From Verrucomicrobiia bacterium (lineage in GTDB: Bacteria; Verrucomicrobiota; Verrucomicrobiia; JABWAM01): DNA of 64,000 bases. Under the pieces are notes generated by a model. The model saw nothing but the letters and a program-made list of their open reading frames with translations, ran no database searches and was not told where the DNA came from. Position 1 is the stretch's first letter. The number at the start of each line of letters is the position of its first letter. Shown piece after piece: positions 40,321-62,322 of the stretch. The stretch spans positions 66,344 to 130,343 of the forward strand of contig JAQUAF010000004.1 in NCBI GenBank assembly GCA_028687435.1, in the 5' to 3' direction. A program made the position numbers and the translations under genes.

Positions 40321-40331
40321 CCCACCTTAAT

Positions 40332-40385
40332 CCTCCCCTTGTCAAGGGGAGGTGTTGAAATGGCTCCCCCTTGTTCAAGGGGGAG
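40332..40385 (+). promoter_or_regulatory. Two tandem, near-identical small hairpins upstream of the NRPS operon
   Basis: CCTCCCCTT-GTCA-AAGGGGAGG and CTCCCCCTT-GTTC-AAGGGGGAG, 11 nt apart, about 180 nt upstream of the NRPS1 start. Confidence 0.4.
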
Positions 40386-40564
40386 TTAGAGTCGTCGGGA
40401 CGGGACCCCTTTTCCCAACCTGTCACGCCAAAGCCTCGGCGGCGGCGGATTGACAGTTGTCCGTCCCTTGCAAACGTCAATGTCATTTTTAACTCGATCT
40501 GAAACATTTTTCGGGAAATCCTCTCCCAAAACAGGGAGAAATGCCGGATAAGCTCTAAACCGTT

Positions 40565-43500
40565 ATGAAAAACGATACCCCTTTCAAGGCAAGCCGTTAT
40601 GCGCGGCTCTTGTGGAACGAATGGATGATGCAGCCGGACGATGACTGCTACAATATCGGCTTTGTCTATGAAATCACAGGGAAACTGGATGTGGAGCGTC
40701 TGAAAACCGCCCTGCAATGCTATATCAACCGGAACCCGCAGATCCGTTCCTCTTTCAGTGAAAAACAGGAAACCCTGTATCAAACCTTCCAAAGCCAAAT
40801 CAAGGATCCCATCGTTTGCCAGGATTGCTCGGGCCAAGGACAAGAGGAACTCGACGGTCTGATCCAAAAGCTCTGCGGGCAAAGCTTTGATCTCTCCCAT
40901 GCGCCGCTGTTTAAGTTTTCCATCCTTAAAGCCGATGACCACCGGCACTACTTGGCGTTGCGTTTTCACCACATCATCGTTGACGGGACCTCACTCGAAA
41001 AAATCCCCCTGTCGATTGCCGCATTGTATAACGCCACCGATCCATTGCTCCCCGGAGAAGTCGTCGGCGAACCGCCCCAACTGGGCGCTTATTTGGAATA
41101 TGAAGAGGCGCTTTTTAAGAAGTCATCCCTGCCGGAAGCTCTGGATTATTGGGAACAATTGCTTGGCGGCCGGAGCTTGTATGTCAATTTGTCGAAAAAA
41201 GAAAGCGCCCCCAAGAATCCTGATTTTTCAGTCAAAATCTTCAATTTCGATTTGGACCAGAAACTGACGAATCTGATTTCCAATTTGGCCCGGGAAAATT
41301 CCGCCACGGTTTTCCATGTCATGGCGGCGCTCTGGAGCGTTTTCCTGAAAAAATATTCCGGCCAGGAAAGCATTGCCTTTGTTTATCCTGTCGGAATGCG
41401 CCCCGGAAACATGATGGACATGGACGGTTATGCCGTGAACTCGCTGCCGATGGTCACGGATTATCGCGAAAATACGACATTCGTTTCTTTGGTCGGCCAA
41501 ATCAAGGAACAGCGGAAACTCGCCAAACGCCATCAATTCGCCCCTTTTGACGAGATCGTCAACCGATATAATAAAACGGCGCCTTCCAAATACGGCCAAC
41601 AATACAATAACTATCTGAACGCGGTCATCAGCCAATCCAACGAGTTGCTGGACTCGCCGATGGACTTGAAAGGGGTGCAGGTCAAAGCCATCCCCTCCTC
41701 AACCCTGTTCCATGCGGAAATGGGATTGATCTATCGCAAAGAACCTCAGACCCTTCATTGCCAGATCTGTTACAACCAGGCTTTGTTTGAAGATTTTGTT
41801 TACGCGTCGGCAGAAAAGGATTTTACGCGTTTGGCGGAAAGGTTGCTGGCCGATCCCCATCAAGAGGTTGACGCGGTGTCCCTTCTTGCCGAGGGCGACC
41901 GGCAACAAATCCTTTGCGACTGGAACAAAACAGACGTTCCCTTTTCCAAGGAAAAAACCATTTCCGCGCTTTTTGAAGAGCAGGTGGAACAAACACCGGA
42001 CAACCTTGCCGTGGTCTATGAAGGAAAAAGCCTGAGCTACCGGGCTCTCAATCAACAGGCCAATCAACTGGCCCATGCCATTCGGGGGAAATACCGGGAA
42101 TTCCATGGGAAAGAGATCCAAGGCGATACGCTGATCGGGTTTTATATGGAACGCGGCATGGAAATGATTGCCGGCATCCTGGCGATCCTGAAGGCCGGGG
42201 GCGCCTACGTGCCATTTGATCTCGCCGATCCTGAAGAAAGGTTGAAATTCAAGCTTGACGACAGCAATTGCAAAATGATCGTTGCCAGCGCGGAAACCCT
42301 TGAAAAATTGCAGCCGCTGACCGGCGCAAAAATTCCAACGATCAGCATCGACGCCGAGGCGCGCGAAATAGAAAAAAGACCGGCCTCCAACCCGGCGCCG
42401 GTGAATCATTCCAGAAACCTGGCCTGCCTGATCTATACGTCGGGATCGACCGGCCGCCCCAAAGGCGTGATGACCGAGCACTGCGGCGTGGTGAACTTCA
42501 TCGACTATCACCGGAAGAACTTCGTCCCCCTCAAAAAGCATCATCATGTCCTGCAAAGCATTTCCCTGAGTTTCGACGCCTCATGGACCGAATTGGCCCT
42601 CGGGCTTTTTACCGGCTCAACTCTGCATATCGTCAAGTCGATGGCGGAAATGACCGAAAAGCGGATGCTCCAATTTCTCAAGGACCATGAAATCAATGTT
42701 TTCATCTCGACTCCCGCGATGGTGGAAAACCTGTCCAAAAAAGACAGCGCCAGCCTGGAGATCATCATTTGCGGGGGCGAGGTCTGCGAGAAATCAATCA
42801 TGGATGACTGGAGCGACCGGGTCAAATTTTACAACGCCTACGGCCCGACGGAAGCAACGATCTGCGCCACCTATTCCGCGCATCGCCGGAGCAAATCCAA
42901 CCGGAATATCGGAAAGCCGTTGCAGAACAAAAAAGCTTATATCCTTGATGCCAGGCTTAACCCGGTTCCCAAGGGGCTGTGGGGTGAGTTGTATATCGGG
43001 GGAGAAGGCCTGGCCAGGGGCTATTGGAATCGGCCGGAATTGACCCGGGAACGGTTCATGGATGATCCCTTCGCCCCTGCCGCGGGATCGAAAATGTATA
43101 AAACGGGTGACATGGTCCGCTGGCTGGAAGATGGCAGCATCGAGTTTCAGGAAAGAAACGACGACCAGATCAAGATCAACGGCTTCCGGGTGGAACTGGG
43201 TGAAATTGAAAACAAGCTTGCGCAATGCCCCGCCCTCTCCCGCAATGTCGTGGTCTGCAGGGAACGGGCGGGAAGAAAATATCTGGCCGCCTATTATACA
43301 ACCCGCGACAAAATTGAACCCGACGCCTTGAAAAAGCACCTTGCCGGTTTGCTGCCGAATTACATGGTGCCGGGTTGTTTCCTCGAACTGCCCAGGCTTC
43401 CCCTGACTCCCAACGGCAAAATCGACAAAAAAGCGCTTCCCGATCCCCATTTCGAACCAGCCAAGGAAACCTATGCGCCGCCGGAAAACGCAATCCAACG

Positions 43501-46500
43501 GCAATTGTGTCAAACCATGAAGGAGGTGCTGGGATTGGATAAAATCGGAATAAGGGACGACTTCTTCGCCAACGGCGGGGATTCGATTGCCTGCCTGCGG
43601 CTGAGCGCGAAGTGCCGCGACAAGGGGCACGCCCTGAGCCCCAGGGATATCTTCGAAAAACGCACGGCGGAAAATCTTTCCCGCTTGATCCAGGAGAACA
43701 AGGGAAAAGGGGCGGCTCCGGATGATCAGGAGGACTTTTCGCAAACATGCCGGGATTTTCTTCCCGCCGGGCTTTTGGCGGAAATCCATCGCCGTTATGC
43801 CGTTGAGGAAATCCTTCCCGCAAACAGCCTGCAGCAGGGGTTTTTGTATCACCTATTGAGCCATCCGGGTGACGACGCCTATCACATCCAAATGCTGGCG
43901 GACTATCGGCAAGGGATTGACGTCACGAAATACGAACAGGCCTGGAAATACGCCGTAAAAAAATATCCCCCCATGCGGACTTGCTTCAATTGGAAGGAAG
44001 AAATCGTCCAAATCATCTGCCGGGATATCGATTTCAAGCTCAACTTTTCCGATGTTTCCAACCACGAAAATAAAGAGGCGGCCATTGATGAAATCCGCCA
44101 TGCCGATCGGAAAAAGGGTTTCGATCTCGCCCAACCGGGGCTTTTTAGGATTTATCTTGTCAAACAGGGCGAGAGCCATTACACGCTGTTAAAAAGCGAA
44201 CATCACAGCATCACCGACGGCTGGAGCAATTCCCTGCAGTTGAATTATGTCCATGCGGTTTACAAGCAACTCCTGAAAAATCAGTCTCCCCCAAACGAAC
44301 CCGACGAAGCCTACTGCGCCGCGCAAAAACACCTCTTTGTCAACCAGGATAAAGCGCAGGCTTATTGGAACGACCGGATCAAAAAAGCCGCTCCGGCCCA
44401 TGATATCCGCCCGCTCTTTTCGGCAAACCAAAATCCCGATGCCATGAAGAAAATCAGGGAACCCCGGGAATATTCCCTGCGGATAGACGGCGCCCCCTAT
44501 GATCTCATTAAAAAAGCGGGACTCAAGGCCGGGGCAACCCTGAATGTCCTCATTCAGTTCGCCTGGCACAAACTTCTCTCCCTCTATGGCGGCAACAGCC
44601 CGACCGTGGCGGGAACGGTTGTATCGGGAAGAGCCCTTCCCATCAAAGGCATCGAAAACAGCGTGGGTCTTTATGTCAATACGCTGCCGCTGATCGTTGA
44701 CTGGCGGGAAAAAACCGTGCAGGAGCAATTGAATCAAATTCATTCCGCCATGATGGAGATGGACGAACATAGTTCCATGAACATCGGCCAACTCCATCGG
44801 GGGGGGCATCGGCTTTTTCACAGCCTCTTCGTATTTGAAAACTACCCCCTGCCCGAGGAAGAAACCCCGGGGCCGGAAGCCCTTGAATTTACGCTGAGAA
44901 AAGCAGCCGGCAAACTCGATTTCCCCCTTTGTTTGGCGGTCTTTGAAAAGGATCATTCGCTTCTTCTCCAACTGAACTACGATGGCGCTTGTTTATTCCC
45001 GGAAGATGCCAGAAAGCTGATGTCCCAAATGGAGCTGATCATCAACGAAATCCCGGACAAACTCGGGGTTTCCCACCACGCAATCTCCGCTCTTTCCCCC
45101 CTGGATTACGAAAAAACGATTCATCTCTGGAACAAGACCGCCTTGGACTATGGGAGGGATCAAACGATTGCCGAAGCCTTCGAAGCCCAGGCGATGAAAA
45201 CCCCCGGGCAGACCGCCCTGGTCTTTGGCGGGGAAAAATTGACCTATCGGCAACTCAACCAACAGGCCAACCAAATCGCGGCCGCGCTCAAAAAAGATTA
45301 TCTCCAGAACTTCGGGGAAGCCATCAAACCCGGCGCCCTTGTCGGGCTTTACCTGGATCGCTCCGTCCAGATGATCGCCGCCATTCTCGGCATTCTCAAA
45401 GCCGGCGCCGCCTACGTTCCTTTTGACCGCGCCGATCCCGCCGGGCGGCTGCAATACAAAATCGAGGATTGCGCCTGCAAGATGATGCTGACCTCCTCGG
45501 CATGCGCGGCGGATCTGGCCTTTTTGCCGCCCGGACGTCCGGCACGCTGGGAGATCGACCGGCATACGACGGAAATCGCCGCCCAGCCGGATTCCAATCC
45601 GAACCGCATCAATCGCGCCACGGATCTGGCCTATGTCATCTATACCTCGGGTTCGACCGGCCAACCCAAAGGGGTGATGCTGGAGCACTACGGAGTGATC
45701 AACCTGGCGGCGTCCCACCGCCAAAGTTTCAACATCGGGGAACAATCGACGATTTTGCAATTTGCGCCGGTGAGTTTCGACGCCTCGGTCTCGACGCTGT
45801 TCACCACGCTGCTCAACGGCGGCACGCTTTGCCTTTGCCCGGAAGAGACGAGGAAAGACACGCAAAAATTGGGTGAACTGATCGTCCAGAACCGGGTGAC
45901 CCTGATCGATATTCCAGCCAGGTTGCTGGAGGTTTTCCCCCGGGATCTCGACCTGTCGCATTTGCGTTGCATCATCACGGCCGGGGAGGTCTGCGACCAA
46001 AAGACCATGGACTACTGGAGCGGCAAAGTGAGGTTGATCAACGCCTACGGGCCAACGGAAGGCGCCGTCTGCGCGACCTTTTCGATCCATGCGAAAGGGA
46101 AAAGCAACAAGAACATCGGCAAACCGATTGGAAACAAGAAAGTTTATGTTTTGAACAGCGACCTCACCCCCCTGCCGGTGGGGGCGCCCGGGGAGTTGTA
46201 CCTTGGCGGGGACGGACTGGCGCGGGGTTATCTGAACCGGCCGGAGATCACGCGGGAGCGTTTTATGGCAAATCCCTTTCTAAAGGAAGGCGGACCCACG
46301 CTGCGTGAGGCGAGGATTTACAAGACCGGGGATCTGGTGCGCTGGCTGGACAACGGCGAGCTGGAATTCTTGGGACGAAACGACGACCAGGTGAAAATTC
46401 ACGGCTACCGGATTGAACTCGGGGAAATCGAACAACGGCTGCTGTCGTATCCCGGGATCTCGGGCGGCGCGGCAAAAATTCAGGACTGGAAAGGCGCCCC

Positions 46501-46960
46501 CTGTCTCTGCGCCTACTATTCAGTGTCTAAAAAAGTTTTGCCGGAAGAACTGAAAAAACATCTTTCCGCTGCGTTGCCGGATTACATGATCCCTTCGCAT
46601 TGGATGGAGTTGCCAAGCCTCCCGTTGACCGTTTCGGGAAAAATCGACCGGCACGCACTGCCGGTCCCCGAGTTAAAAACGGTTGATGCCCCATGCATCC
46701 CACCCCGCAACGAACTGGAAGCGCGGCTCTGCGAATTGTGGCGGCAGATTCTGGGGCTGGAACGCCTCGGCATTCACGATGACTTTTTCAATTTGGGCGG
46801 CAATTCGATTGCCGCCATCAAACTGGTCAACAAGATGACCGGCCTTTTGGGCGCGGAGATCTCCATCGCCGAGCTCTACCAAAAACGAACCATCGCAAAT
46901 TTTAATTTTGCCGAACAACCGGCCCAAAATAAAATCGAAGGCGAAGAAATCGAACTATGA
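40565..46960 (+). CDS. Non-ribosomal peptide synthetase, two modules (C(starter)-A-T-C-A-T)
   Basis: 2131 aa. C motifs HHIIVDGTS and HHSITDGWS. A-domain cores LIYTSGSTGRPKGV and VIYTSGSTGQPKGV, plus NGK and YKTGD motifs. T domains FFANGGDSIA and FFNLGGNSIA. The stop overlaps the next NRPS start (ATGA). Confidence 0.92.
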   Translation: MKNDTPFKASRYARLLWNEWMMQPDDDCYNIGFVYEITGKLDVERLKTALQCYINRNPQIRSSFSEKQETLYQTFQSQIKDPIVCQDCSGQGQEELDGLIQKLCGQSFDLSHAPLFKFSILKADDHRHYLALRFHHIIVDGTSLEKIPLSIAALYNATDPLLPGEVVGEPPQLGAYLEYEEALFKKSSLPEALDYWEQLLGGRSLYVNLSKKESAPKNPDFSVKIFNFDLDQKLTNLISNLARENSATVFHVMAALWSVFLKKYSGQESIAFVYPVGMRPGNMMDMDGYAVNSLPMVTDYRENTTFVSLVGQIKEQRKLAKRHQFAPFDEIVNRYNKTAPSKYGQQYNNYLNAVISQSNELLDSPMDLKGVQVKAIPSSTLFHAEMGLIYRKEPQTLHCQICYNQALFEDFVYASAEKDFTRLAERLLADPHQEVDAVSLLAEGDRQQILCDWNKTDVPFSKEKTISALFEEQVEQTPDNLAVVYEGKSLSYRALNQQANQLAHAIRGKYREFHGKEIQGDTLIGFYMERGMEMIAGILAILKAGGAYVPFDLADPEERLKFKLDDSNCKMIVASAETLEKLQPLTGAKIPTISIDAEAREIEKRPASNPAPVNHSRNLACLIYTSGSTGRPKGVMTEHCGVVNFIDYHRKNFVPLKKHHHVLQSISLSFDASWTELALGLFTGSTLHIVKSMAEMTEKRMLQFLKDHEINVFISTPAMVENLSKKDSASLEIIICGGEVCEKSIMDDWSDRVKFYNAYGPTEATICATYSAHRRSKSNRNIGKPLQNKKAYILDARLNPVPKGLWGELYIGGEGLARGYWNRPELTRERFMDDPFAPAAGSKMYKTGDMVRWLEDGSIEFQERNDDQIKINGFRVELGEIENKLAQCPALSRNVVVCRERAGRKYLAAYYTTRDKIEPDALKKHLAGLLPNYMVPGCFLELPRLPLTPNGKIDKKALPDPHFEPAKETYAPPENAIQRQLCQTMKEVLGLDKIGIRDDFFANGGDSIACLRLSAKCRDKGHALSPRDIFEKRTAENLSRLIQENKGKGAAPDDQEDFSQTCRDFLPAGLLAEIHRRYAVEEILPANSLQQGFLYHLLSHPGDDAYHIQMLADYRQGIDVTKYEQAWKYAVKKYPPMRTCFNWKEEIVQIICRDIDFKLNFSDVSNHENKEAAIDEIRHADRKKGFDLAQPGLFRIYLVKQGESHYTLLKSEHHSITDGWSNSLQLNYVHAVYKQLLKNQSPPNEPDEAYCAAQKHLFVNQDKAQAYWNDRIKKAAPAHDIRPLFSANQNPDAMKKIREPREYSLRIDGAPYDLIKKAGLKAGATLNVLIQFAWHKLLSLYGGNSPTVAGTVVSGRALPIKGIENSVGLYVNTLPLIVDWREKTVQEQLNQIHSAMMEMDEHSSMNIGQLHRGGHRLFHSLFVFENYPLPEEETPGPEALEFTLRKAAGKLDFPLCLAVFEKDHSLLLQLNYDGACLFPEDARKLMSQMELIINEIPDKLGVSHHAISALSPLDYEKTIHLWNKTALDYGRDQTIAEAFEAQAMKTPGQTALVFGGEKLTYRQLNQQANQIAAALKKDYLQNFGEAIKPGALVGLYLDRSVQMIAAILGILKAGAAYVPFDRADPAGRLQYKIEDCACKMMLTSSACAADLAFLPPGRPARWEIDRHTTEIAAQPDSNPNRINRATDLAYVIYTSGSTGQPKGVMLEHYGVINLAASHRQSFNIGEQSTILQFAPVSFDASVSTLFTTLLNGGTLCLCPEETRKDTQKLGELIVQNRVTLIDIPARLLEVFPRDLDLSHLRCIITAGEVCDQKTMDYWSGKVRLINAYGPTEGAVCATFSIHAKGKSNKNIGKPIGNKKVYVLNSDLTPLPVGAPGELYLGGDGLARGYLNRPEITRERFMANPFLKEGGPTLREARIYKTGDLVRWLDNGELEFLGRNDDQVKIHGYRIELGEIEQRLLSYPGISGGAAKIQDWKGAPCLCAYYSVSKKVLPEELKKHLSAALPDYMIPSHWMELPSLPLTVSGKIDRHALPVPELKTVDAPCIPPRNELEARLCELWRQILGLERLGIHDDFFNLGGNSIAAIKLVNKMTGLLGAEISIAELYQKRTIANFNFAEQPAQNKIEGEEIEL
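45128..46440. repeat. 1313-bp near-identical direct repeat (copy 1) covering the adenylation domain of NRPS1 module 2
   Basis: Identical to 51646..52958 at a constant offset of 6518 nt with 2 mismatches. The antisense ORF translations in the track are identical between the copies. Confidence 0.9.
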
Positions 46961-49900: not shown

Positions 49901-52900
49901 CCTCCGACACTCTGCAAGATGACCTCAGCCGGATCCTTCCGGAGCATATGATCCCGTCCTGTTTTATCGCCCTGCCGGAAATGCCGCTGACCGTGAACGG
50001 GAAAGTCAACCATAAGGCCCTCCCCTCGCCTGATTTCAGGGGCGACGCCAACGACTTCCAACCTCCGCGCAATGATGCCGAGGCCCTCCTGTGCCGGCTG
50101 TGGAAAGAAATTTTGGGAATCGACAAAGTCGGCATCAACGACGATTTTTTCAAACTAGGCGGTCATTCCATCCTGGCCATCAAACTCTGCCATAGGATGA
50201 CCAAGGAACTGCAGCGGGAAATTCCAATTGCCGCGCTGTTTGAGAAAAAAACCATCAAGGGAATCTCCTCCGCCCTCCCGCTGTTCAAGCGTCTGGTTGC
50301 GATCAAGCATTATGCCGAAACCGAAGCCATCCTCTCCTTTGCCCAGGAACGCCTTTACTTTATCGAGGAGTATGAACGGGGCAGCAAGGCTTACAATATT
50401 CCGATCCTGCTGGAGCTCGACCCAAGCGTCGATCTGCGCGCATTGAGGGAATCGCTGCGGAGCATCGTCGATCGGCATGAAGTTTTGAGAACCGTTTTTG
50501 CGAAAAACGAGCAGGGAATCGTTTATCAGAAAGTCAAAACCGGCCCGCTGGAAATAGCGGAGATCAACGTGGCGGAGGCGGATTTCCCTCGGCAGGCAAG
50601 CGAACGCATCAATATCGCCTTTGACCTGCACCTCGAGTATCCAATACGGGCAACGCTGCTTTCCACCGATCGGCGAAGGTGTTTGCTGGTCAATATCCAT
50701 CACATCGCGTTTGACGGTTGGTCGGCGGATATTTTCTTGCGGGAACTGAACGCCTTTTACCGGCATCATCGCGAGGGCGTTCCCCACGGGCTTCCCCCCC
50801 TGGAAATCCAATACAAGGATTTTGCCCTCTGGCAACGGGATTGTCTTTCCGGGGAAAATCTGGAGCGGGAACTGGCTTACTGGAAAAACAATCTGCAAGA
50901 TTGCGAAACGCTGGAGCTTCCCGTTGACAAACCACGCCCCCCCGAAGTCGATTACCACGGCGATTATTTCGCATTCAATCTCGATGAGGATATTTCCCGT
51001 CAAGCGCGGCAATGCGCAAAAAAATATGGGACAACCCCTTACACAGTTTTTTTAAGCGCTTTTTACATCCTGCTTCACAAATACAGCGGCCAGAGCGATA
51101 TCGTCGTCGGCGCCCCCACAGCCAACCGGCATTATGCCCAACTGGAAAACCTCATCGGCTTTTTCGTGAATTCCACGCCCATGCGGTTCCGGCTGGCTCA
51201 GACGCCGGACATTAAAAGCCTGATGGAGAACACCGCGGCATCCCTGGCCGACATGCAGTCCCACCAGGATTTGCCATTCGAAAAACTGGTTGACCTCCTG
51301 GGCGTGCCCAAAGACCCGTCGCGACACCCGTTGATCCAGGTGATGTTCAGCGTGCAGAGCTTTGGATCCCTCGATCAAAAAAATGGGCCGGGCCTTTTCA
51401 AGAATATCGACACCACGGAGTCGTATAAAATCGCCAAATACGATTTAAGCCTCTTCATCGACGATTCCCAGGAAAGGTTTTCCTGCGGCTTTAACTACGC
51501 CACCAGCTTGTTCACGCGGGCCGCCATTGAAAGGATGGCCAGCCATTACAATGCCGTTTTGCGGGCCTTTTTATCGGGAGAAAATCGGCGGATCAAAGAC
51601 ATCAATCTCTTAACCGGTGACGAATTCGAGACGATCATCCGGAATTGGAACAAGACCGCCTTGGACTATGGGAGGGATCAAACGATTGCCGAAGCCTTCG
51701 AAGCCCAGGCGATGAAAACCCCCGGGCAGACCGCCCTGGTCTTTGGCGGGGAAAAATTGACCTATCGGCAACTCAACCAACAGGCCAACCAAATCGCGGC
51801 CGCGCTCAAAAAAGATTATCTCCAGAACTTCGGGGAAGCCATCAAACCCGGCGCCCTTGTCGGGCTTTACCTGGATCGCTCCGTCCAGATGATCGCCGCC
51901 ATTCTCGGCATTCTCAAAGCCGGCGCCGCCTACGTTCCTTTTGACCGCGCCGATCCCGCCGGGCGGCTGCAATACAAAATCGAGGATTGCGCCTGCAAGA
52001 TGATGCTGACCTCCTCGGCATGCGCGGCGGATCTGGCCTTTTTGCCGCCCGGACGTCCGGCACGCTGGGAGATCGACCGGCATACGACGGAAATCGCCGC
52101 CCAGCCGGATTCCAATCCGAACCGCATCAATCGCGCCACGGATCTGGCCTATGTCATCTATACCTCGGGTTCGACCGGCCAACCCAAAGGGGTGATGCTG
52201 GAGCACTACGGAGTGATCAACCTGGCGGCGTCCCACCGCCAAAGTTTCAACATCGGGGAACAATCGACGATTTTGCAATTTGCGCCGGTGAGTTTCGACG
52301 CCTCGGTCTCGACGCTGTTCACCACGCTGCTCAACGGCGGCACGCTTTGCCTTTGCCCGGAAGAGACGAGGAAAGACACGCAAAAATTGGGTGAACTGAT
52401 CGTCCAGAACCGGGTGACCCTGATCGATATTCCAGCCAGGTTGCTGGAGGTTTTCCCCCGGGATCTCGACCTGTCGCATTTGCGTTGCATCATCACGGCC
52501 GGGGAGGTCTGCGACCAAAAGACCATGGACTACTGGAGCGGCAAAGTGAGGTTGATCAACGCCTACGGGCCAACGGAAGGCGCCGTCTGCGCGACCTTTT
52601 CGATCCATGCGAAAGGGAAAAGCAACAAGAACATCGGCAAACCGATTGGAAACAAGAAAGTTTATGTTTTGAACAGCGACCTCACCCCCCTGCCGGTGGG
52701 GGCGCCCGGGGAGTTGTACCTTGGCGGGGACGGACTGGCGCGGGGTTATCTGAACCGGCCGGAGATCACGCGGGAGCGTTTTATGGCAAATCCCTTTCTA
52801 AAGGAAGGCGGACCCACGCCGCGTGAGGCGAGGATTTACAAGACCGGGGATCTGGTGCGCTGGCTGGACAACGGCGAGCTGGAATTCTTGGGACGAAACG

Positions 52901-55900
52901 ACGACCAGGTGAAAATTCACGGCTACCGGATCGAACTCGGGGAAATCGAACAACGGCTCTCGGCCATCGAGGGAATCTCCCTCTGCGCGGTAAAAGTGTT
53001 TGAAAGGGAAAACTCCAAGTGCCTATGCGCCTATTATTCGCGAATCTCAAAAATATCGGAAAACCAAATCAGGAATCAGCTGGCCGCCGTATTGCCCGAT
53101 TACATGACGCCGGCCTATTATGTCGAGCTCGAGTCGTTTCCCCTGAACACTTCCGGCAAGATTGACCGGAAAGCCTTGCCGTCCCCGGATCTCAGCCTCG
53201 AAAGGGCCGCTTATACCGCCCCTGGCGCCCCTCTGGAAAAAACGCTTTGTGAGACTTTCCAGAAGTTGCTTCACGTGGATAAAATCGGGGTGAATGATGA
53301 TTTCTTCAAAAATGGCGGCGATTCGATTTTGAGCATTCAGCTTTGTTCAGCCCTGAAAAAGGCGGGGATTTCCTGCGCCGTCAAGGATCTCTTCAAAAAT
53401 CCAACGGTCAAAAAGCTCGCCAATCATCTTTCCTCCCCCCAAGGGCCGGCTATTCCGATCATCCGCGAAACCGGCGTGTTGGAAGGGGAATTTGAACTGC
53501 TGCCCATCCAAAAATGGTTTTTTGACAAAGTGGAAAGCGGAAGCTTCGGACGCCCCAACCACTGGAACCAAAGCTTTATGTTGAAGGTTCCGCCGCTTGA
53601 TCCGGAGGCGATAAAAAGGGCCATCAGCGCTCTGACCGGCCATCACGATATGCTCCGGGCCACTTTTAAAGGGAGGACCCAGAAATACAACCCGGCGATT
53701 GCCGTTCCTAAATTAAAGCTTCTCGATCGAAGCGGATTGGCGGACGAAAAACTTTTTGCCATCCTCACCGAATGGCAGAGCGGTTTTGACATTGAGAATG
53801 GGCCTCTTTGGCAGATCGGCTACATCACCGGCTATCCCGACGGCGGCGCCAGGTTGTTTTTCGCTTTTCATCATCTGATCATCGATGCGGTCAGTTGGAG
53901 AATCATCAGCGATGATTTCAGAAGAGTTTATGACGGCGAGCCTTTGAATGAAAAGGGAAGCAGTTACCGGCAATGGGTCCATGAAATGGGGCATTACCGG
54001 CAAACACACAGGGAAGAAGCCGCCTATTGGGAAAATGTCCTGGGCTCGCTTCCCGCCCACCCCATCGCCAATGACCAACACAAAAGCATTCAGCGCACAC
54101 CGTCATTTCGGGAAGTCCGCTTTGAAAAGGAATTCACCGCCCAACTGCTTAAAGAAGCCCATGCCGCTTATGCCACCTCCATCAATGACCTGCTGCTGAC
54201 TGCCGCGGCCTATATGCTTAAAGACTGGCTGGGCGGCGGCCTTCAGGGGATCACCTTGGAAGGACACGGACGGGAAAATATCAATCCTGCCATCGACCAC
54301 AGCCATACCGTGGGCTGGTTCACGAATACTTATCCCGTAAAACTGGAGGTCGGCCGGGATATGTCTGCAACGATCATGGGGATAAAAGAAAACCTGACCC
54401 GCATTCCGAACAAGGGAATCGGTTTCGGGGCCTGCTTGTCCGGCAACAAAAAGCAAAGGCTGCCGCCGATAACCTTTAATTATCTCGGTCAACTCGACGG
54501 CGCCGACGACGTCAATACCTGGCCCTTTGCGGCCGAACCAGCGGGACAAAGCACCGCGGCGGAAAATAGCGACACCAGCCTGATTGCCATGAATGGGTTT
54601 GTCGCGGAGGGAGAACTCCGTTTCCAGTTCATGACCAACCTGGGAGAACAGGCAACCGCCCAATGCGCCCAAAACTTTGAGCGGACGCTCAAAACGGTGG
54701 TTGAGCATTGTCTTGCCGCGCGGCGAACCGGCGCCCCGGCCGTCCAACAAACGGCGGAATTCGAGTATGTGCCCTGCCTTTTATTGAACCAGGAAGCCCG
54801 CTCGAATAAATTGATGATCATGGTTCATCCGGATTCCGGTTATGAGGCCTATATGGCTTCGCTGTATCCTGCGCTCTCCAGTGACATCAAGGTCATTCTT
54901 ATCGATAACTACTACAAAAAAGTTTATCTGCAAAACGGCGTCACGTTGGCCAAAAGCGATCTCAACGGCTTCAAGGATTTGGCGGATTATTACATCAAAC
55001 TCCTGTTTGCCAAAGAAAGGGAGCTGTTGGAACAATCCGCCTGTTCACTGCTGGGTTACAGCTTTGGCTGTCCGATCGCATGGGAAATGCACCGCATCCT
55101 CAAGGGCCATGCCATCGCCGTTAACGACCTCTACATGGTCGACCCCCTGCTGCCGTCCTTGCTGAAAACCAAACGACGGCTGAATTGCTTCTCATGGTAC
55201 GAGGAATATCTTCCGGCGCCGACGGAAACGCCCGTGATCCATTTCCATTGCACGGTTCCCGATCCGTCCATTCCGGGTTATGCCGAGCATTTCACGGACA
55301 AAGAAAATTATTCCCTGCGATCCATCGCCCAAAACCTGCGGGAATATGAAATAAAGTGCCACCATACCGGCATCCTCAACAATCCCGACTTTATAAAAAC
55401 TTTCCAAACGACGGCGAACAGCGGTTGGGTCATTAAGGATGAAAGCGCAAGACAGACCACAGGCAGAGGCGGCGACATCCAACGGATTGAACTCGCGGTA
55501 AGGGAAATCCTGTCAAAGATTATGAGGCCGGAAAAAGAATTGGCCGGCGCAGAAAACCTTTTCCACCAGGGGTGCGCTTCCATCCAGACGTTGTCGATCC
55601 TGGCCATGGTCAATGATCGATTCCGGCTGTCCATGTCTCTGCCTGACATCATCCGAAACTTTACCATCGACGGCCTGGCCGCCTTGATCGCCAAGAACGA
55701 GGTTGTCCGAAAAAGCGATCCCGTCTGGGAACCTGTGGTGTTCAAAAGCCGGAATCCGGATGCCGCCAATCTGTATTTCCTCCCCGGTTTTATCGGATCG
55801 GTGGGTTCCTACAGTCGAATCTGCTCCGGCTTGTCCAGGCTTTTCAATGTCATCTTCATGGAACCCAAGGGAATGTATGGCGATATGACGCCTTTTGCCT

Positions 55901-56550
55901 CCCCGGCCGAAGCGCTCGCCGTTTATGCAAGCGAGATCACCCAAAGAAATAAGATCGATTCTCCCGTTTTCCTGGCCGGCCACTCGGTGGGTTCGGTTCA
56001 TTCATTGGATCTGGCGATCAAACTGGAGGAAATGGGATACCGGAAGGTGGGCCTGATCAATATCGACGGTTACTTGCACAAGATGGAAAGTCTCATGCAA
56101 TCGTTCAGAACCCTCAATTTGGATGCGGCCCTGGTGGCGGCGATAAAAAGATTCTTCAAGGAAAACCCGGCAAAGGAATCCGCCCTGGCGCCGCAGGATC
56201 CGGTGCGGGAAATCGCCTCGATTTTGTTCCCATCGCCGGAGGTGAGCCGGGATTACGCCTTAAGGGTTGCCCTGGGATACCGCAATATCTGGCATCAGCA
56301 AATTGACGACATCATCAAATACAACGAGCCCTCCCGGAAATTCGCCGGCAAGCCCCTGGCGTTCATCACTCTGGATTCGGATAAAAAAATCCAGGAGATG
56401 ATCCTGCGCTCATGCCATGAGCGCTACGCCGGCAAGTTTCAACTCCATTATATTGAGGGAGACCACTTGAGTTGCATTATCAAGCAGGAACTCATCGAGA
56501 AAGTTGTCAATCTTGTCTCCCAATGGAAAGAGTCCTCAAGCGTTTTTTAG
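46957..56550 (+). CDS. Non-ribosomal peptide synthetase, two modules plus termination region (dock-C-A-T-C-A-T-E-TE-T-TE)
   Basis: 3197 aa. N-terminal TubC-like docking domain (LGLFRDLKKRNISLWCEAGKLKAFLPKGG). C motifs HHLAVDGWS and HHIAFDGWS. A cores IIYTSGSTGRPKGV and VIYTSGSTGQPKGV. T domains FFKLGGHSIL and FFKNGGDSIL. Epimerisation domain motifs E1-E7 (PIQKWFF; HHLIIDAVSWRI; EGHGRE; HTVGWFTNTYP; FNYLGQ). Thioesterase GYSFG, a degenerate carrier-like segment (LFHQGCASIQ) and a second alpha/beta-hydrolase TE (GHSVG). Confidence 0.92.
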   Translation: MNILGLFRDLKKRNISLWCEAGKLKAFLPKGGSLAAGEKGFIDENKPEILRILQENGIQAKEDFPGREIYRNVLAKGNWGLSYAQERLWFLEQYEGGSSAYNVPLLLDLGAGVDLPAFKQSVERVAARHEVLRTVFRKDSAGNDYQCILPGTPAIHEERLLEKDLPARLKQNINSVFDLVHEGPLKVWLLRTERTVYALINLHHLAVDGWSMGILTAELENFYQAGMENREPKLAGLDIQYKDFSLWQKDCLSGEELARNLAFWKKRLEGYEPLDFPTDFPRPSRVDYAGEYVPFELDEKLSVSLKKLAAQKGTTLYVVLLSAFYLLLHKYTAQSSLVVGTVAANRNHKQLENLIGFFVNSLVLNIQIDRESTFDRLIDQVKSLLVDGQTFQELPFEKLVELLKLEHDPSRHPIFQIMFGGMGFGENKQRLFREVPLDSHYKPAKFDLSLFIDERDSALKGTFNYRVALFKEETIRRLKDHFVNILGQIAKNSAVPIKEISFLSNREYETLIYEWNKTDAAYPQSRTIIELFEEQAKENPDQPAILCQGECLTYRELNEKTNQLAHTIRKVFHEFNGTPIAGDTLIGIYIDRSVEMALAILGILKAGAAYVPFDSADPQDRLKFKVNDCGCKMVLTTANNLEDLVFLAETDTIPFSVDGYMDEIRKAPTSNPGRVNGPENLAYIIYTSGSTGRPKGVMLEHRSVINYIENFKNATAPGKKIVDLSSSLSFDLTVTTTLVPLATGSTIAIYPGNLQDIDGYMKHLAACGVTFVKTVPSLLYLLLQREKPASLAEIFVGGEKLKRELLAHREGLTIYDEYGPTEATVGTTLANVFPLNQNGIGKPYHHYKVYILDAGLKPVPIGVKGELFIGGACLARGYFNRPELTQERFIANPFATAGEKQKGLNARIYKTGDIVRWLPDGNIEYLGRNDDQVKIRGFRIELGEIEQRLSEHPSIEHCAVVCKEVNANKYLIAYYVASRELTSDTLQDDLSRILPEHMIPSCFIALPEMPLTVNGKVNHKALPSPDFRGDANDFQPPRNDAEALLCRLWKEILGIDKVGINDDFFKLGGHSILAIKLCHRMTKELQREIPIAALFEKKTIKGISSALPLFKRLVAIKHYAETEAILSFAQERLYFIEEYERGSKAYNIPILLELDPSVDLRALRESLRSIVDRHEVLRTVFAKNEQGIVYQKVKTGPLEIAEINVAEADFPRQASERINIAFDLHLEYPIRATLLSTDRRRCLLVNIHHIAFDGWSADIFLRELNAFYRHHREGVPHGLPPLEIQYKDFALWQRDCLSGENLERELAYWKNNLQDCETLELPVDKPRPPEVDYHGDYFAFNLDEDISRQARQCAKKYGTTPYTVFLSAFYILLHKYSGQSDIVVGAPTANRHYAQLENLIGFFVNSTPMRFRLAQTPDIKSLMENTAASLADMQSHQDLPFEKLVDLLGVPKDPSRHPLIQVMFSVQSFGSLDQKNGPGLFKNIDTTESYKIAKYDLSLFIDDSQERFSCGFNYATSLFTRAAIERMASHYNAVLRAFLSGENRRIKDINLLTGDEFETIIRNWNKTALDYGRDQTIAEAFEAQAMKTPGQTALVFGGEKLTYRQLNQQANQIAAALKKDYLQNFGEAIKPGALVGLYLDRSVQMIAAILGILKAGAAYVPFDRADPAGRLQYKIEDCACKMMLTSSACAADLAFLPPGRPARWEIDRHTTEIAAQPDSNPNRINRATDLAYVIYTSGSTGQPKGVMLEHYGVINLAASHRQSFNIGEQSTILQFAPVSFDASVSTLFTTLLNGGTLCLCPEETRKDTQKLGELIVQNRVTLIDIPARLLEVFPRDLDLSHLRCIITAGEVCDQKTMDYWSGKVRLINAYGPTEGAVCATFSIHAKGKSNKNIGKPIGNKKVYVLNSDLTPLPVGAPGELYLGGDGLARGYLNRPEITRERFMANPFLKEGGPTPREARIYKTGDLVRWLDNGELEFLGRNDDQVKIHGYRIELGEIEQRLSAIEGISLCAVKVFERENSKCLCAYYSRISKISENQIRNQLAAVLPDYMTPAYYVELESFPLNTSGKIDRKALPSPDLSLERAAYTAPGAPLEKTLCETFQKLLHVDKIGVNDDFFKNGGDSILSIQLCSALKKAGISCAVKDLFKNPTVKKLANHLSSPQGPAIPIIRETGVLEGEFELLPIQKWFFDKVESGSFGRPNHWNQSFMLKVPPLDPEAIKRAISALTGHHDMLRATFKGRTQKYNPAIAVPKLKLLDRSGLADEKLFAILTEWQSGFDIENGPLWQIGYITGYPDGGARLFFAFHHLIIDAVSWRIISDDFRRVYDGEPLNEKGSSYRQWVHEMGHYRQTHREEAAYWENVLGSLPAHPIANDQHKSIQRTPSFREVRFEKEFTAQLLKEAHAAYATSINDLLLTAAAYMLKDWLGGGLQGITLEGHGRENINPAIDHSHTVGWFTNTYPVKLEVGRDMSATIMGIKENLTRIPNKGIGFGACLSGNKKQRLPPITFNYLGQLDGADDVNTWPFAAEPAGQSTAAENSDTSLIAMNGFVAEGELRFQFMTNLGEQATAQCAQNFERTLKTVVEHCLAARRTGAPAVQQTAEFEYVPCLLLNQEARSNKLMIMVHPDSGYEAYMASLYPALSSDIKVILIDNYYKKVYLQNGVTLAKSDLNGFKDLADYYIKLLFAKERELLEQSACSLLGYSFGCPIAWEMHRILKGHAIAVNDLYMVDPLLPSLLKTKRRLNCFSWYEEYLPAPTETPVIHFHCTVPDPSIPGYAEHFTDKENYSLRSIAQNLREYEIKCHHTGILNNPDFIKTFQTTANSGWVIKDESARQTTGRGGDIQRIELAVREILSKIMRPEKELAGAENLFHQGCASIQTLSILAMVNDRFRLSMSLPDIIRNFTIDGLAALIAKNEVVRKSDPVWEPVVFKSRNPDAANLYFLPGFIGSVGSYSRICSGLSRLFNVIFMEPKGMYGDMTPFASPAEALAVYASEITQRNKIDSPVFLAGHSVGSVHSLDLAIKLEEMGYRKVGLINIDGYLHKMESLMQSFRTLNLDAALVAAIKRFFKENPAKESALAPQDPVREIASILFPSPEVSRDYALRVALGYRNIWHQQIDDIIKYNEPSRKFAGKPLAFITLDSDKKIQEMILRSCHERYAGKFQLHYIEGDHLSCIIKQELIEKVVNLVSQWKESSSVF
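51646..52958. repeat. 1313-bp near-identical direct repeat (copy 2) covering the adenylation domain of NRPS2 module 2
   Basis: See copy 1 (45128..46440). Protein-level difference is a single residue (GGPTLREA vs GGPTPREA). Confidence 0.9.
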
Positions 56551-56714
56551 AAGATGCGCGAAAAGGATCGCGCCATTCGCAATGCTGATTTTCCCAACAG
56601 TCTTTTTCTCACCGCACAGTCTTCAAAAAAATCCAAACTTTAATCTTGAACTTGGCGCATTGCCCCTTGACCCTTGAATCTTAAACCGCGAGGCCGCATT
56701 GCCTTGCCAGAACC

Positions 56715-57023
56715 ATGTTTAACTATCATTTTCAAGAAGGCCCGGAAAAAACGCTTGTCATTGTCATGGCAGGCGAACTGGATACCCTTGCGGCACAACC
56801 GATCCAAAAAGAGATTGAGCTTTATAAGGGAAAAAACTACGAGAAAGTCTTGTTCGAAATGTCCAATCTGACCTACATGGCCAGTTCCGGGCTGCGGGTT
56901 ATTTTTTATGCCCAAAAGAATTTGGGTGAAAATGTAAAAATTGAAATCAAAGGGGCCAAGGAACTGGTGGCTAAAATACTGCAAATCAGCGGCATGTCGA
57001 AATATGTGACGACCGTTCCGTAG
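56715..57023 (+). CDS. STAS-domain protein (anti-sigma-factor antagonist, SpoIIAA-like)
   Basis: 102 aa. VIVMAGELDTLAAQPIQKEI...LTYMASSGLRVI is a typical STAS fold sequence with a phosphorylatable Ser region. Confidence 0.65.
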   Translation: MFNYHFQEGPEKTLVIVMAGELDTLAAQPIQKEIELYKGKNYEKVLFEMSNLTYMASSGLRVIFYAQKNLGENVKIEIKGAKELVAKILQISGMSKYVTTVP

Positions 57024-57105
57024 CGCGGGAACAAGTCGTCCAGAGGCCGACCCTCCATTGATTTCCAATTGGAGGAGAATGGAGAGCGGGACTCCTGCAC
57101 GGTTT

Positions 57106-57131
57106 GGCTTCAGGTAGTCTGAAGCCTGATT
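57106..57131 (+). terminator. Putative intrinsic terminator between convergent STAS and MFS genes
   Basis: GGCTTCAG-GTAGT-CTGAAGCC hairpin followed by TGATTTTATGG. A degenerate family-A repeat lies just upstream (57048-57104). Confidence 0.4.
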
Positions 57132-58601
57132 TTATGGTTCCGGCTTGTCCGGGTTGGGGATAGACGCCAAATTTTTCATCGCCGATCGGATCACGGCATA
57201 GCCGGATAAAATGGTTAACCCGGCAACCAGAAAGATCAAACCCCGGCTGGCGGCCATCAGTTGGCCGAGAATCAATGCGCTCGCAAACCACATGAGGGAG
57301 TAGATCTGTCCCAACCCGCCCATCACAACCCCCTGTTCGCCCGGTTTGGCAATATTGGAGTAAAGCGTGGTAAGTCCCAATTGGACAAACGGCAGGGCGA
57401 GAAAAAACAACAGAGCCACAGTCCAGAGTTCAAAGGGCAGAAGCGAGCCTCTTCTTAAATCGGAGACAAACAGGAAGAGGAACAGCAGGCCTTGGGCCAG
57501 AAGGCTGAACAAAATCAACTTGCGGTAATCGAAGTGTTTCAGGGCGCCGGGCTGAAGAAAAAAAACGCTTACCCCCAGGGACAGGGCCACAAAAATAAAA
57601 AACACCCCGATGTCAGACGGGGAATATCCGAAGACATGGGCCAGATAAAGGGAAATGGATTGGAGAAAAAGCCCGAAGCCGAAATAAAAAAAAGAATAGC
57701 CCAGGTTCAACTTTTTCAGCGCGGTTGACCGCAGCAAATAGGTGATGGACGCAAAAATGTTCCGCCATGGCGAAGCCGTTTGATCATTCAAGACACAGGG
57801 CGCAGTCTCGGCAAAAACAAAAAACAGCATGACCCCATTCACCAGCGACAAAAACGCGGCCAGAAAAAAGGGAAGAGCCAGGGGAAAAGGAAACGGTATC
57901 AAATGAATCCCGGAGGAAATGGCCGGCCCCAGGATAAACCCGGCAATATTGGCGATCACGGGCCATTTGAAATTGCTGAGCTTGCTCCGCGTGTCCGCGC
58001 TGATATCGGAAATAACCGCATTGGCAATGACCAGGGTGCCGCAACAAAAACCGCTGACAGCCCGGGCCGACAAAAAAAGCAAATAACTGCCGATGACGAT
58101 GCTCCATGCTCCCAGGAAATAGCCGGCGACAATGCCGGCCAAACCGGCCAAAATCAATTTTCGCCGTCCGTAAAAGTCCGACAGCCCGCCAAGAATCGGC
58201 ATGCCGAAAAAACTCAAAAGAGGGAAGGCTGCAAAGGCCATCCCGTAAAGAATATCCCGGGACAAGAAAATCTCATCGGCTTGGATAAGCCCTTGGACGG
58301 GGTCAAGAAACAGCTTGGGCATGAGGGGATAAATGATAGCCACCCCCAGCGCATCGATAAAAATCAGCGAATAAAGCGCAAACAGCCTTTTGTTCAAAAT
58401 GCCCCTAGCCTTCGCAGAGATAAAAGTGTTTTTCCCACTGTTTAAAATGTTTCTTTTGAAACAGGCTTCCAGACACAAACCAGCGCCTCCAGCAAACCAA
58501 CGACAAGCAACACCAGGAATGTTTTTTTCATGGAAGGGACGCCCATCAGAGTTTTTCGCCGCTTTGTTTCCCTTCATAGCGCCATCCAGGGCGGAATTCA
58601 A
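57132..58601 (-). CDS. MFS transporter (DHA/TetA-like drug:H+ antiporter family), probable exporter for the NRPS product
   Basis: 12-14 predicted TM helices. Motif-A-like GGLSDFYGRRKLILAG. The start is uncertain: the ORF maximum is 58601, and internal ATGs are possible. Confidence 0.75.
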   Translation of the reverse strand: MNSALDGAMKGNKAAKNSDGRPFHEKNIPGVACRWFAGGAGLCLEACFKRNILNSGKNTFISAKARGILNKRLFALYSLIFIDALGVAIIYPLMPKLFLDPVQGLIQADEIFLSRDILYGMAFAAFPLLSFFGMPILGGLSDFYGRRKLILAGLAGIVAGYFLGAWSIVIGSYLLFLSARAVSGFCCGTLVIANAVISDISADTRSKLSNFKWPVIANIAGFILGPAISSGIHLIPFPFPLALPFFLAAFLSLVNGVMLFFVFAETAPCVLNDQTASPWRNIFASITYLLRSTALKKLNLGYSFFYFGFGLFLQSISLYLAHVFGYSPSDIGVFFIFVALSLGVSVFFLQPGALKHFDYRKLILFSLLAQGLLFLFLFVSDLRRGSLLPFELWTVALLFFLALPFVQLGLTTLYSNIAKPGEQGVVMGGLGQIYSLMWFASALILGQLMAASRGLIFLVAGLTILSGYAVIRSAMKNLASIPNPDKPEP

Positions 58602-58635
58602 TCATGAACCGCCGGCAGCGCATTCCCAGGTACCT

Positions 58636-58989
58636 TCAATTCGCGACGCAACGAAATTTTTTTCGATTTTTTTGAAAATCCTTGATCAAAAATCGGATGT
58701 GATCCATGAGCTCCTTTTGGCGCTTTGTCAGACACTCAACATCGACCCGGTAACGTTCGACAGACAACAGACGTGGTTCCGCAAGCCGTTCGGCATCCGC
58801 ATCCAGCTTGGCATGAATGGTTTCAACGGCAAGTTTGGGAATGGCATTCTCGAAAAAATATTCGCGCCGGATGAATTGCCTGCTGGTCTCAATCGACCAA
58901 TCGAGATGACAAATCCGATCGCCGTCCAGATAAACCCCCAATCCCGTGCCTCCGCAGGATTCCTCCGATGTCGGCCCCTCAAGATGCAA
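58636..58989 (-). CDS. Hypothetical small protein upstream of the MFS transporter (weak call)
   Basis: 117-aa ORF on the same strand, ending 35 nt before the MFS ORF. Protein-like composition, no recognised domain. Competes with a low-complexity plus-strand frame. Confidence 0.25.
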   Translation of the reverse strand: MHLEGPTSEESCGGTGLGVYLDGDRICHLDWSIETSRQFIRREYFFENAIPKLAVETIHAKLDADAERLAEPRLLSVERYRVDVECLTKRQKELMDHIRFLIKDFQKNRKKFRCVAN

Positions 58990-59141
58990 AAGCGACGATT
59001 TATCGGACTCAAAACGCGATTGCAGACAAGCTCAATTTGCCCCCCCCTGCGCCCGCTCATTGCCCGGCTTGCGCGGAATTGTATTGGCCTCCCATATCAG
59101 TTATATTTTCCTGATGTTCAGAAAACTCAAATCCGCGGCAT

Positions 59142-60242: not shown

Positions 60243-60390
60243 AAAATTGAGACCGTGGCAATGACCGCTTTCGCGGGAATGACGAAGAAGAAAGAATGAC
60301 GAAGAAAGAAAAGAAATGATGAATTCGGGTAAAATCAGATGGAACCCTGCCAAAGACATTTTCCCCCGTCGGGGATAGAGTCGGAGAAAG

Positions 60391-62240: not shown

Positions 62241-62322
62241 GGCCGGCCCTCCATCATTTCGCAGCAAATGGAGGGCGGGGCTCCTGCACCGCTTTTTCCA
62301 ACAAACATTGAAATTCCTGACC
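62241..62322. repeat. Family-A repeat (left arm partial) plus tail
   Basis: GGCCGGCCCTCC..AAATGGAGGGCGGGGCTCCTGCACCGCTTTTTCCAACAAACATTGAAATTCCTGACC. Confidence 0.8.

Follow-up and report, generated by a model that had tools for sequence, protein, structure and literature searches.

The 64-kb window analyzed here (the whole stretch of 64,000 nucleotides taken from contig JAQUAF010000004.1 of a Verrucomicrobiia bacterium) carries a nonribosomal peptide synthetase (NRPS) cluster constituted by two synthetase genes, named nrpsA and nrpsB, a gene for a STAS protein and an adjoining gene for a major facilitator superfamily (MFS) transporter. Both synthetase genes are single open reading frames (ORFs) on the + strand, nrpsA at 40565..46960 (2131 aa) and nrpsB at 46957..56550 (3197 aa), and they overlap by ATGA. 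The order encoded by nrpsA is C1-A1-T1-C2-A2-T2 followed by a C-terminal docking tail, and that of nrpsB is dock-C3-A3-T3-C4-A4-T4-E-TE1-T5-TE2, where C, A, T, E and TE stand for condensation, adenylation, carrier, epimerization and thioesterase domains, respectively. Directly downstream lie the STAS-only protein of 102 aa (56715..57023, +; PF01740, 47.6 bits) and, in convergent orientation, the MFS transporter (57132..58601, -; PF07690, 86.9 bits); between them, a terminator-like hairpin with a 9-bp stem and a T-rich tail (57106..57126, no strand assigned) was recognized by a consensus scan only. On a public contig of identical sequence, a gene caller starts the MFS gene later, yielding a protein of 448 aa, and 58478 is the more likely start.

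Domains were assigned with Pfam and NCBIfam hidden Markov models (HMMs), applied to the whole proteins and to separate pieces and read against curated cut-offs, with domain envelopes as further support for nrpsA and orthologues for nrpsB. Whole-protein Pfam searches recovered Condensation, AMP-binding, AMP-binding_C and PP-binding in both proteins, as well as Thioesterase and TubC_N in nrpsB; nrpsA displayed two matches each to Condensation, AMP-binding and PP-binding, and nrpsB displayed TubC_N, three Condensation and two AMP-binding matches together with PP-binding, of which the one in the tail was called third. The domain order can be regarded as settled because the domains taken piecewise exceed their cut-offs, and no domain of either protein failed its curated threshold. 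An initial annotation, read from the letters of the sequence, had proposed this same coupled gene pair and domain string, with the STAS and MFS genes directly downstream; ORFs, ATGA overlap and domain HMMs agree with it exactly. The co-linear C, A, T and TE domains and the motifs HHxxxDG, TSGSTGxPK, YKTGD, GGxSI and GxSxG are those of type I modular NRPSs. As for the smaller domains, T1 (43487..43696, +; GGDSI, Ser1007), T3 (50071..50280, +; GGHSI) and T4 (53227..53436, +; GGDSI) were recognized by motif and envelope, T2 (GGNSI) and the docking tail ending in IEGEEIEL occupy 46709..46957 (+), a tail kept in a related locus (L006, ending in MEGEVVEL), and the N-terminal docking domain of nrpsB is of the TubC_N type (aa 6-55, 46972..47121, +; PF18563, 27.2 bits, cut-off 26).

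Chance cannot account for the gene pair, its domains, its neighbors and the taxon markers of the window: this is an intact, real two-gene, four-module NRPS operon, which, judging by its sequence, is probably functional. The cluster is ordinary in kind; its unusual traits are the E-TE-T-TE end, the orphan N-terminal C domain and the tie, at the level of the family to which it belongs, to a partner-switching system.

Condensation and epimerization domains

The condensation-family domains were classified against 93 such domains from 45 NRPSs, labelled by their context, using a neighbor-joining (NJ) tree and class HMMs from which the domains of the window were excluded. C3 (47164..48489, +; HHLAVDG) scored 464 bits with the LCL model, 166 with DCL and 49 with E, and C4 (50302..51636, +; HHIAFDG) scored 487, 167 and 71 bits, respectively; both are LCL-type, and this is also supported by the best match of C3 in the PDB, Txo2 (293 bits), and by the position of C4 in the NJ tree. 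The third condensation-family domain of nrpsB (53461..54741, +) scored 67 bits with LCL, 43 with DCL and 438 with E, besides 210 bits with the Pfam model and 76.4 bits with TIGR01720 (cut-off 74.2), and it carries HHLIIDA, EGHGRE, GWFT and FNYLG. The terminal E domain proposed in the initial annotation is thus real, and because of it a D-configured last residue, also proposed there, is likely.

C2 (43793..45118, +; HHSITDG at aa 1213) scored 157, 390 and 27 bits with LCL, DCL and E, respectively, and is DCL-type: its best PDB relatives are McyB, PvdL, BacC, TycB1 and SrfA-C, and the NJ tree groups it with domains placed after E. No E domain precedes C2 in nrpsA, where T1 (to aa 1044) runs straight to C2 (from aa 1077), a conflict that the earlier reading, correct as to the order of domains, had missed. 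In the orthologous locus of an Acidobacteriota metagenome-assembled genome (MAG), L003, an intact E1 of about 430 aa lies between T1 and C2 (HHLIVDA, EGHGRE, FNYLG). The T1-C2 linker of the window resembles the linker that follows E1 in L003, and T1 still has GGDSI, which is characteristic, as a core motif, of carriers feeding E domains; on these three grounds, the module-1 E domain was probably deleted in the lineage of the window. In L006, whose upstream part is not visible, a C4-like LCL domain occupies the C2 position, and since the window and L003 have DCL domains there, the configuration of residue 1 would vary within the family.

The N-terminal condensation domain

C1 (aa 1-449, 40565..41911, +; PF00668, 222 bits) is a divergent C domain that occupies the very N-terminus (from residue 1), in L003 as well as in the window, and the ORF of the window cannot be extended upstream. 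No docking domain precedes it; the elongation subunits in our set carry docking sequences of 47-81 aa. Its catalytic motif is intact (HHIIVDG at aa 135), and the L003 orthologue, 44-49% identical, has HHIIIDG. The class HMMs gave 234 bits for LCL, 144 for DCL and 43 for E; true LCL domains score 439-690 bits on the LCL model, and ClbN, an authentic starter from E. coli CFT073, scores 144 (LCL) and 73 (DCL), a low, LCL-leaning profile like that of C1. The C4 motif, LPxDxxRP and the C7 motif are degenerate in C1, and the C3, C5 and C6 motifs are kept. Starter C domains have been described as lying closest to LCL domains, with C2 and C4 motifs unconserved (Rausch 2007, PMC1894796), and C1 displays this pattern, being nearest to LCL with unconserved donor-side motifs.

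When compared directly with characterized starters, however, C1 aligned with only 40 (ClbN), 49 (RzmA) and 30 bits (CDA-C1), against 85-140 bits with ordinary LCL domains and 120 bits with LCL structures (Txo2); in the NJ tree it sits on a separate long branch and does not join P0058_7, the best partner of ClbN. By sequence, C1 therefore falls outside the group formed by the three characterized starters tested. A word-indexed homologue search with C1, insensitive in that neither the L003 orthologue nor Txo-like proteins were recovered, returned two matches of 22-23% identity. The initial annotation had read C1 as a starter and the product as a lipotetrapeptide. The position holds (residue 1, no docking domain) and so does the distinction from ordinary LCL and from DCL domains in the tree and class HMMs; the grouping with starters does not. 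C1 is best described, on present comparisons, as a diverged branch of the LCL group that stands in starter position, whose most likely function, favored slightly beyond an even chance, would be N-capping with a non-aminoacyl acid; addition of a long fatty acyl group would be less likely, although quite possible. The term lipopeptide is conjectural, because C1 does not group with known starters and no acyl-activating genes lie nearby. In L003 (positions 1311-2229), C1 is split between two frames near residue 180, either by a sequencing error in the MAG or as a pseudogene.

Adenylation domains and the A2/A4 repeat

Specificity codes were read by aligning the A domains to GrsA-PheA, which, as a control, returned its own canonical code DAWTIAAICK. 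The codes obtained were DATIIGAICK for A1 (41969..43447, +), DASDIAAVCK for A2 (45176..46669, +), DLTTFGEVGK for A3 (48547..50031, +) and again DASDIAAVCK for A4 (51694..53187, +). Those of L003 are DATVIGAVCK, DASDIAAVCK, DLTTFGEVGK and DASDIAAVCK, and those of L006 and of the metagenomic protein P0005 agree with the window wherever their sequence is visible, the family consensus for A1 being DAT[IV]IGA[IV]CK. A2 and A4 of L003 are only 60% identical in protein and 72% in DNA, yet they share one code, which argues that the identity of the A2 and A4 codes is under selection rather than a mere effect of repeated sequence. Since the four codes are a constant of the family, the same monomer is predicted for residues 2 and 4. 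We take A1 and A2/A4 to have Phe/Tyr-type pockets; relative to the Tyr code (DASTVAAVC), A2/A4 have Asp at position 278, and relative to the Asn code (DLTK[IL]GEVG), A3 has Thr at position 278 and is presumably Asn-like.

Self-comparison of the window revealed a perfect direct repeat of 1174 bp, missed in the earlier domain list, with one copy at 45128..46301 (+) and the other at 51646..52819 (+), covering the A2 and A4 cores; it is near-perfect for some 90 bp further (in the first copy, on to about 46390), and its flanks fall to 50-60% identity. In L006, 79% identity to module 4 extends over 2 kb, beginning at the end of C2 and running through A2 into T2, so that modules 2 and 4 would have been homogenized repeatedly in the family, at an older date in the related loci, and the repeat of the window points to a very recent gene conversion between A2 and A4. 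Such an abrupt change from complete identity to diverged flanks, in a sequence derived from a MAG, might also be produced if, at the binning or polishing stage, the sequence of one A core had replaced that of the other, in which case A2 and A4 would really differ. We regard this as very improbable: an independent Logan contig from SRR22315507, identical to window positions 52902-60429, breaks off where the repeat ends (position 52902), as short-read contigs do when a repeat is real, and the common A2 and A4 code is already present in L003 and L006, with homogenization recurring in the family.

The release end

Past the E domain, nrpsB comprises TE1 (54772..55431, +; GYSFG, Ser2702/Asp2729/His2803; PF00975, 33.1 bits, cut-off 26.4), an extra carrier, T5, to which neither an A nor a C domain belongs (55501..55701, +; QGCASI, Ser2875; PF00550, 24.8 bits, cut-off 20.8), and TE2 (55762..56541, +; GHSVG, Ser3010/Asp3038/His3171; PF00975, 46.7 bits). 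All four homologues that cover TE1 (window, P0006, P0005 and P0001) keep its triad unchanged, and the T5 serine and TE2 triad are invariant in five. Identity to the counterparts is 51-58% for TE1 and TE2, which makes them as conserved as E, and 37-43% for T5; all three appear to be in use. Because its serine is invariant at this low domain identity, T5 would serve as a carrier and not as a spacer. The two Ser-Asp-His triads are those expected of tandem TEs, but the two domains are not directly adjacent, as the PP-binding domain with its conserved serine lies between them.

Other NRPSs (P0013, P0018, P0019 and P0021) end in TE1-like domains, which follow E in P0013 and P0019, and T5-TE2 aligns as one unit, with about 28% identity, to ordinary A-T-TE ends. 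For these reasons, the tail resembles an ordinary E-TE terminus to which the T-TE end of one more module, devoid of C and A, has been fused. Adjacent tandem TEs are redundant in teixobactin, and in lysobactin the second TE is editing-like (PMC10510592); the order TE-T-TE is not described in the searchable literature. An AlphaFold model of the tail reached a pLDDT of 67 overall and about 40-50 in T5, and Foldseek searches with this moderate model ranked the Vlm2 TE at the top, with NocB, the oocydin TE and TesA, all generic thioesterases that do not separate the hypotheses. The Vlm2 TE is also a weak sequence match to the tail.

A rare family in other phyla

When 1.84 billion representative proteins were searched with the 600-aa tail (HMMER), TE1-T5-TE2 was recovered complete in no more than three other proteins, namely P0006 (Acidobacteriota MAG), P0001 (Bacteroidota MAG) and P0005 (ENA metagenome), and in one fragment. 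A scan of GTDB genomes with the tail added one 3-kb contig from a Desulfovibrionales MAG, the genome of the window itself not being among the matches, and a metagenome scan added two JGI contigs. Over its full length, nrpsB is 53-55% identical to the proteins of L003 (P0006) and L006. Four loci (L003, L004, L006 and L007) have architecture and tail in common with the window family and, where flanks are available, the synteny of the downstream genes as well; the window and L003 are the only two clusters seen in full. The proposal that the product is undescribed is upheld, since all relatives are MAG or metagenome proteins and none of the three specificity codes occurs in the searchable literature.

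Orthologues of the STAS protein, 42-49% identical and with an invariant MASSGLRVIF, directly follow nrpsB in the four loci, and are themselves followed by an RsbW-like kinase (HATPase_c_2), a HAMP-SpoIIE (PP2C) phosphatase and a convergent MFS gene. The STAS protein of the window has the conserved serine motif, at which phosphorylation is predicted, and does not have a kinase and PP2C phosphatase alongside; tblastn searches found no kinase, phosphatase or orthologous MFS of this type anywhere in the 64 kb. Given its conserved place directly after nrpsB in the four loci, the STAS gene is best read as a genuine member of the cluster, the remnant of a conserved partner-switching set, and the window would have lost the kinase, the phosphatase and the MFS of the family. 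The initial annotation had recognized the STAS gene, and had missed both this role and the orthologues in other phyla. Its suggestion that the MFS transporter exports the product fared worse: the protein is tied to the cluster by position only, and has no significant similarity to the MFS proteins of L003 and L004, which are 49% identical to each other. About 3 kb past the L004 cluster, this ENA metagenome contig carries type III-A CRISPR genes (Csm2, Csm4 and RAMP proteins; L004 11816-15205).

Proposed biosynthesis and alternative explanations

Taken as a whole, the locus is best explained as an intact four-module operon of a rare cross-phylum family, with capping by C1 and a relay through T5 and TE2, an explanation to which we give an even chance. 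C1, with no upstream module or docking domain and with degenerate donor-side motifs, would attach to the X1 amine, as a cap, a non-aminoacyl acid delivered by coenzyme A (CoA) or an acyl carrier protein (ACP), and nrpsA passes the chain to nrpsB through its C-terminal tail and the TubC_N-type docking domain. The chain would be epimerized on T4 and then transferred to TE1. T5-TE2 would represent the end of a fifth module lacking C and A, in a relay T4 -> TE1 -> T5 -> TE2 in which the acyl chain on TE1 moves on to T5, or is joined to a group carried there, and TE2 carries out the last release step; this relay is favored over a redundant TE2 because the carrier serine of T5 is conserved. The product would be a tetrapeptide X1-X2-X3-D-X2, where X1 and X2 correspond to Phe/Tyr-like pockets (that of X2 with the extra Asp278) and X3 is Asn-like; short, rich in aromatic residues and with a D residue at its end, this peptide is probably new. 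In the family, partner switching among the STAS protein, the RsbW-like kinase and the HAMP-PP2C phosphatase would control expression or activity, and the MFS protein would export the product. Within the same explanation, the window cluster would be a recently remodeled, reduced copy of a rare family spread between phyla, having lost the module-1 E domain, kinase, phosphatase and family MFS, with its A2 and A4 cores homogenized. The bolder proposal, in which TE1 is a chain-transfer catalyst to T5 as a module without C or A, TE2 releases, and the pathway of the family is the first among NRPSs to be gated by a STAS/kinase/PP2C set of its own, is doubtful.

Several points weigh against this explanation. 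No A domain serves T5, and nothing computed indicates that T5 is loaded, or with what cargo; transfer from the serine ester of a TE to a carrier is energetically unfavorable and, to our knowledge, without precedent as a dedicated forward step. C1 scores poorly against the known starters, as given above, and no acyl-activating or carrier gene lies nearby, either in the window or upstream in L003. The substrate calls depend on comparison with reference codes, and with a DCL-type C2 that no E domain precedes, the copy in the window may work poorly. Moreover, tandem TEs can be redundant or proofreading without any relay (PMC10510592).

The most conventional alternative is a classical lipotetrapeptide synthetase, in which C1 is a lipo-initiation starter fed by acyl-CoA or acyl-ACP of long chain length, release or cyclization is left to TE1 alone, TE2 is redundant or proofreading, and T5 is a spacer or decoy. 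A C domain placed first in the first gene without a docking domain, and with a catalytic HHxxxDG that is intact and kept in L003, is what this alternative would predict, and redundant or editing roles are documented for tandem TEs (PMC10510592), with TE1-like domains sufficing as terminal TEs in other NRPSs. Against it stand the distance of C1 from ClbN, RzmA and CDA-C1, the absence of FAAL, ACP or lipid genes from the window, and the release end itself: the T5 serine is invariant in five homologues with only 37-43% identity, which indicates carrier use, T5-TE2 matches T-TE release pairs as a unit, and TE-T-TE has no described counterpart in the searchable literature. We consider it possible, and clearly less likely than the capping and relay explanation. 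In a further alternative, C1 and T5 would cooperate, T5 donating to C1 either a starter acid in trans or a tetrapeptide delivered by TE1, the latter giving two rounds, an octapeptide and release by TE2. The orphan C1 and the extra T5-TE2 do co-occur in the two clusters seen in full, neither has an obvious partner, and oligomerizing TEs such as Vlm2 are the closest folds; yet a donor ending in a D residue would need a DCL-like C1, and C1 is nearer to LCL, contact between C1 and T5 is not directly supported, and co-occurrence in two complete clusters is weak evidence. This alternative is thus very unlikely.

Rather unlikely, although less so than cooperation between C1 and T5, is that the copy in the window is decaying or silent and makes little or no product. 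The D-specific C2 left without the E1 seen in L003, the lack of kinase, PP2C phosphatase and orthologous MFS throughout the 64 kb, and the recent recombination inside the genes would all fit with decay. Conversely, both ORFs, spanning 16 kb, are fully open with intact catalytic motifs, the specificity codes are unchanged, an independent read set contains the identical sequence, and L006 indicates that the family tolerates another C type at the C2 position.

Comparison with known systems

Orphan NRPS clusters are common in uncultured bacteria, and such a cluster alone is a routine genome-mining lead. The systems most similar to the one described here are arthrofactin ArfA-C, lysobactin LybB and teixobactin Txo2, multi-subunit type I NRPSs for lipopeptides, with two terminal TEs; ArfA-C also has C as its first domain, and Txo1 and Txo2 provide the best solved-structure matches for C1 and C3. 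The window differs from them in the carrier between the TEs, the E domain directly before TE1, the location of C1 outside the known starters, the presence of only four modules and the lack of lipid-supply genes. In the Vlm2 (valinomycin) and GrsB (gramicidin S) TEs, the serine of the TE holds a chain that then reacts with a partner bound to a carrier, the Vlm2 TE passing its chain to a carrier-bound nucleophile. Although the Vlm2 TE ranks first among the folds matching the tail model, identity to the Vlm2 and GrsB TEs is below 20%, and these systems have a single upstream carrier and one TE, whereas the window has a second, downstream carrier and a second TE. The ClbN (colibactin), RzmA (rhizomide) and CDA PSI starters resemble C1 in their N-terminal position in the first synthetase and their intact HHxxxDG, and ClbN in addition has a class-HMM profile nearest to LCL yet far below LCL members; pairwise scores of 30-49 bits, lower than the 85-140 bits with ordinary LCL domains, set C1 apart from them.

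Regarding regulation, the STAS-only protein with its conserved serine motif (ASSG) resembles those of SpoIIAA/RsbV-RsbW-RsbU and of Vibrio SypA/SypE (PMC8256260, PMC10120452), and in the four related loci the order of STAS, HATPase_c_2 kinase and HAMP-SpoIIE phosphatase is like Rsb-type switching. Unlike the latter, the set of the family is embedded in an NRPS cluster and includes no sigma factor gene, the window keeping the STAS gene only. No partner-switching set linked to an NRPS cluster turned up in the searchable literature, and its presence within this one suggests signal-gated production. The E-TE-T-TE end, rare and with conserved catalytic residues, offers a small and clean system for studying the role of a carrier between two TEs. 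The family further provides natural variants at one junction (E with DCL, DCL without E, and an LCL-like C), which, along with the repeated homogenization of modules, exemplify NRPS evolution by recombination and are relevant to engineering.

Genomic context of the cluster

The RecA encoded in the window (840-1943, -) is 100% identical to an NCBI protein annotated as 'MAG: Verrucomicrobiae bacterium'; its next matches are 83-90% identical and mostly metagenome proteins, one of them, at 83%, being named as a Verrucomicrobiae MAG. Two pilin-like proteins (28342-28983 and 34597-35265) both have a prepilin N-terminus and the H-X9-DG motif, and one passes TIGR04294. Together with the RecA match, these prepilins bear out the assignment of the host to the Planctomycetes-Verrucomicrobia-Chlamydiae (PVC) group made from the sequence. 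The window is ordinary chromosome, with genes for MutL, TsaB, a methylaspartate-pathway operon and many genes for carbohydrate use. Horizontal transfer was considered on base composition and rejected, as the GC content at third codon positions (GC3) of the cluster, 0.66, matches that of its neighbors (0.63-0.75).

No gene for a phosphopantetheinyl transferase, MbtH, fatty acyl-AMP ligase (FAAL), free ACP, acyl ligase or tailoring enzyme was found in the 64 kb, nor was an MbtH-like motif in any frame of it. Searches for noncoding features of the window gave no matches in Rfam and no tRNA genes with ARAGORN, and promoter and terminator scans gave nothing except one hairpin. The 330-bp spacer upstream of nrpsA had no Rfam family and no sigma-70-like promoter; it contains two alike GC-rich hairpins (CCCCTTGTCAAGGGGAG and CCCCCTTGTTCAAGGGGGAG) at 40325-40390. 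An enolase-superfamily gene at 62268-63773 was considered as a dedicated racemase and rejected, as it is 5.7 kb off, beside a sugar oxidoreductase gene, and not conserved in the other loci. Past the MFS gene, 58636-60764 contains ORFs with no Pfam match, of 117 aa (-), of 218 and 154 aa (+, overlapping by about 16 nt) and of 334 aa on the opposite strand; the small ORFs of this region are not conserved in related loci.

The methylaspartate (mesaconate) operon at 6025-11865 encodes GlmL, methylaspartate mutase subunit E, methylaspartate ammonia-lyase and an AtuA-like protein, and suggests anaerobic glutamate fermentation in the host. Between the two H-X9-DG proteins (28342-35265) are encoded one protein of 1343 aa that has a CehA/McbA metallohydrolase domain and another of 605 aa without a family match; genes for LacI, a GDSL lipase, GH123 and a metallophosphoesterase adjoin this region, which looks like a PVC-style secreted glycan-degradation locus. 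The window also encodes an extracytoplasmic function (ECF)-type sigma factor (16689-17249, -) and a homologue of the MtaA/CmuA-family methyltransferases (19391-20467), a family unexpected outside methylotrophic anaerobes.

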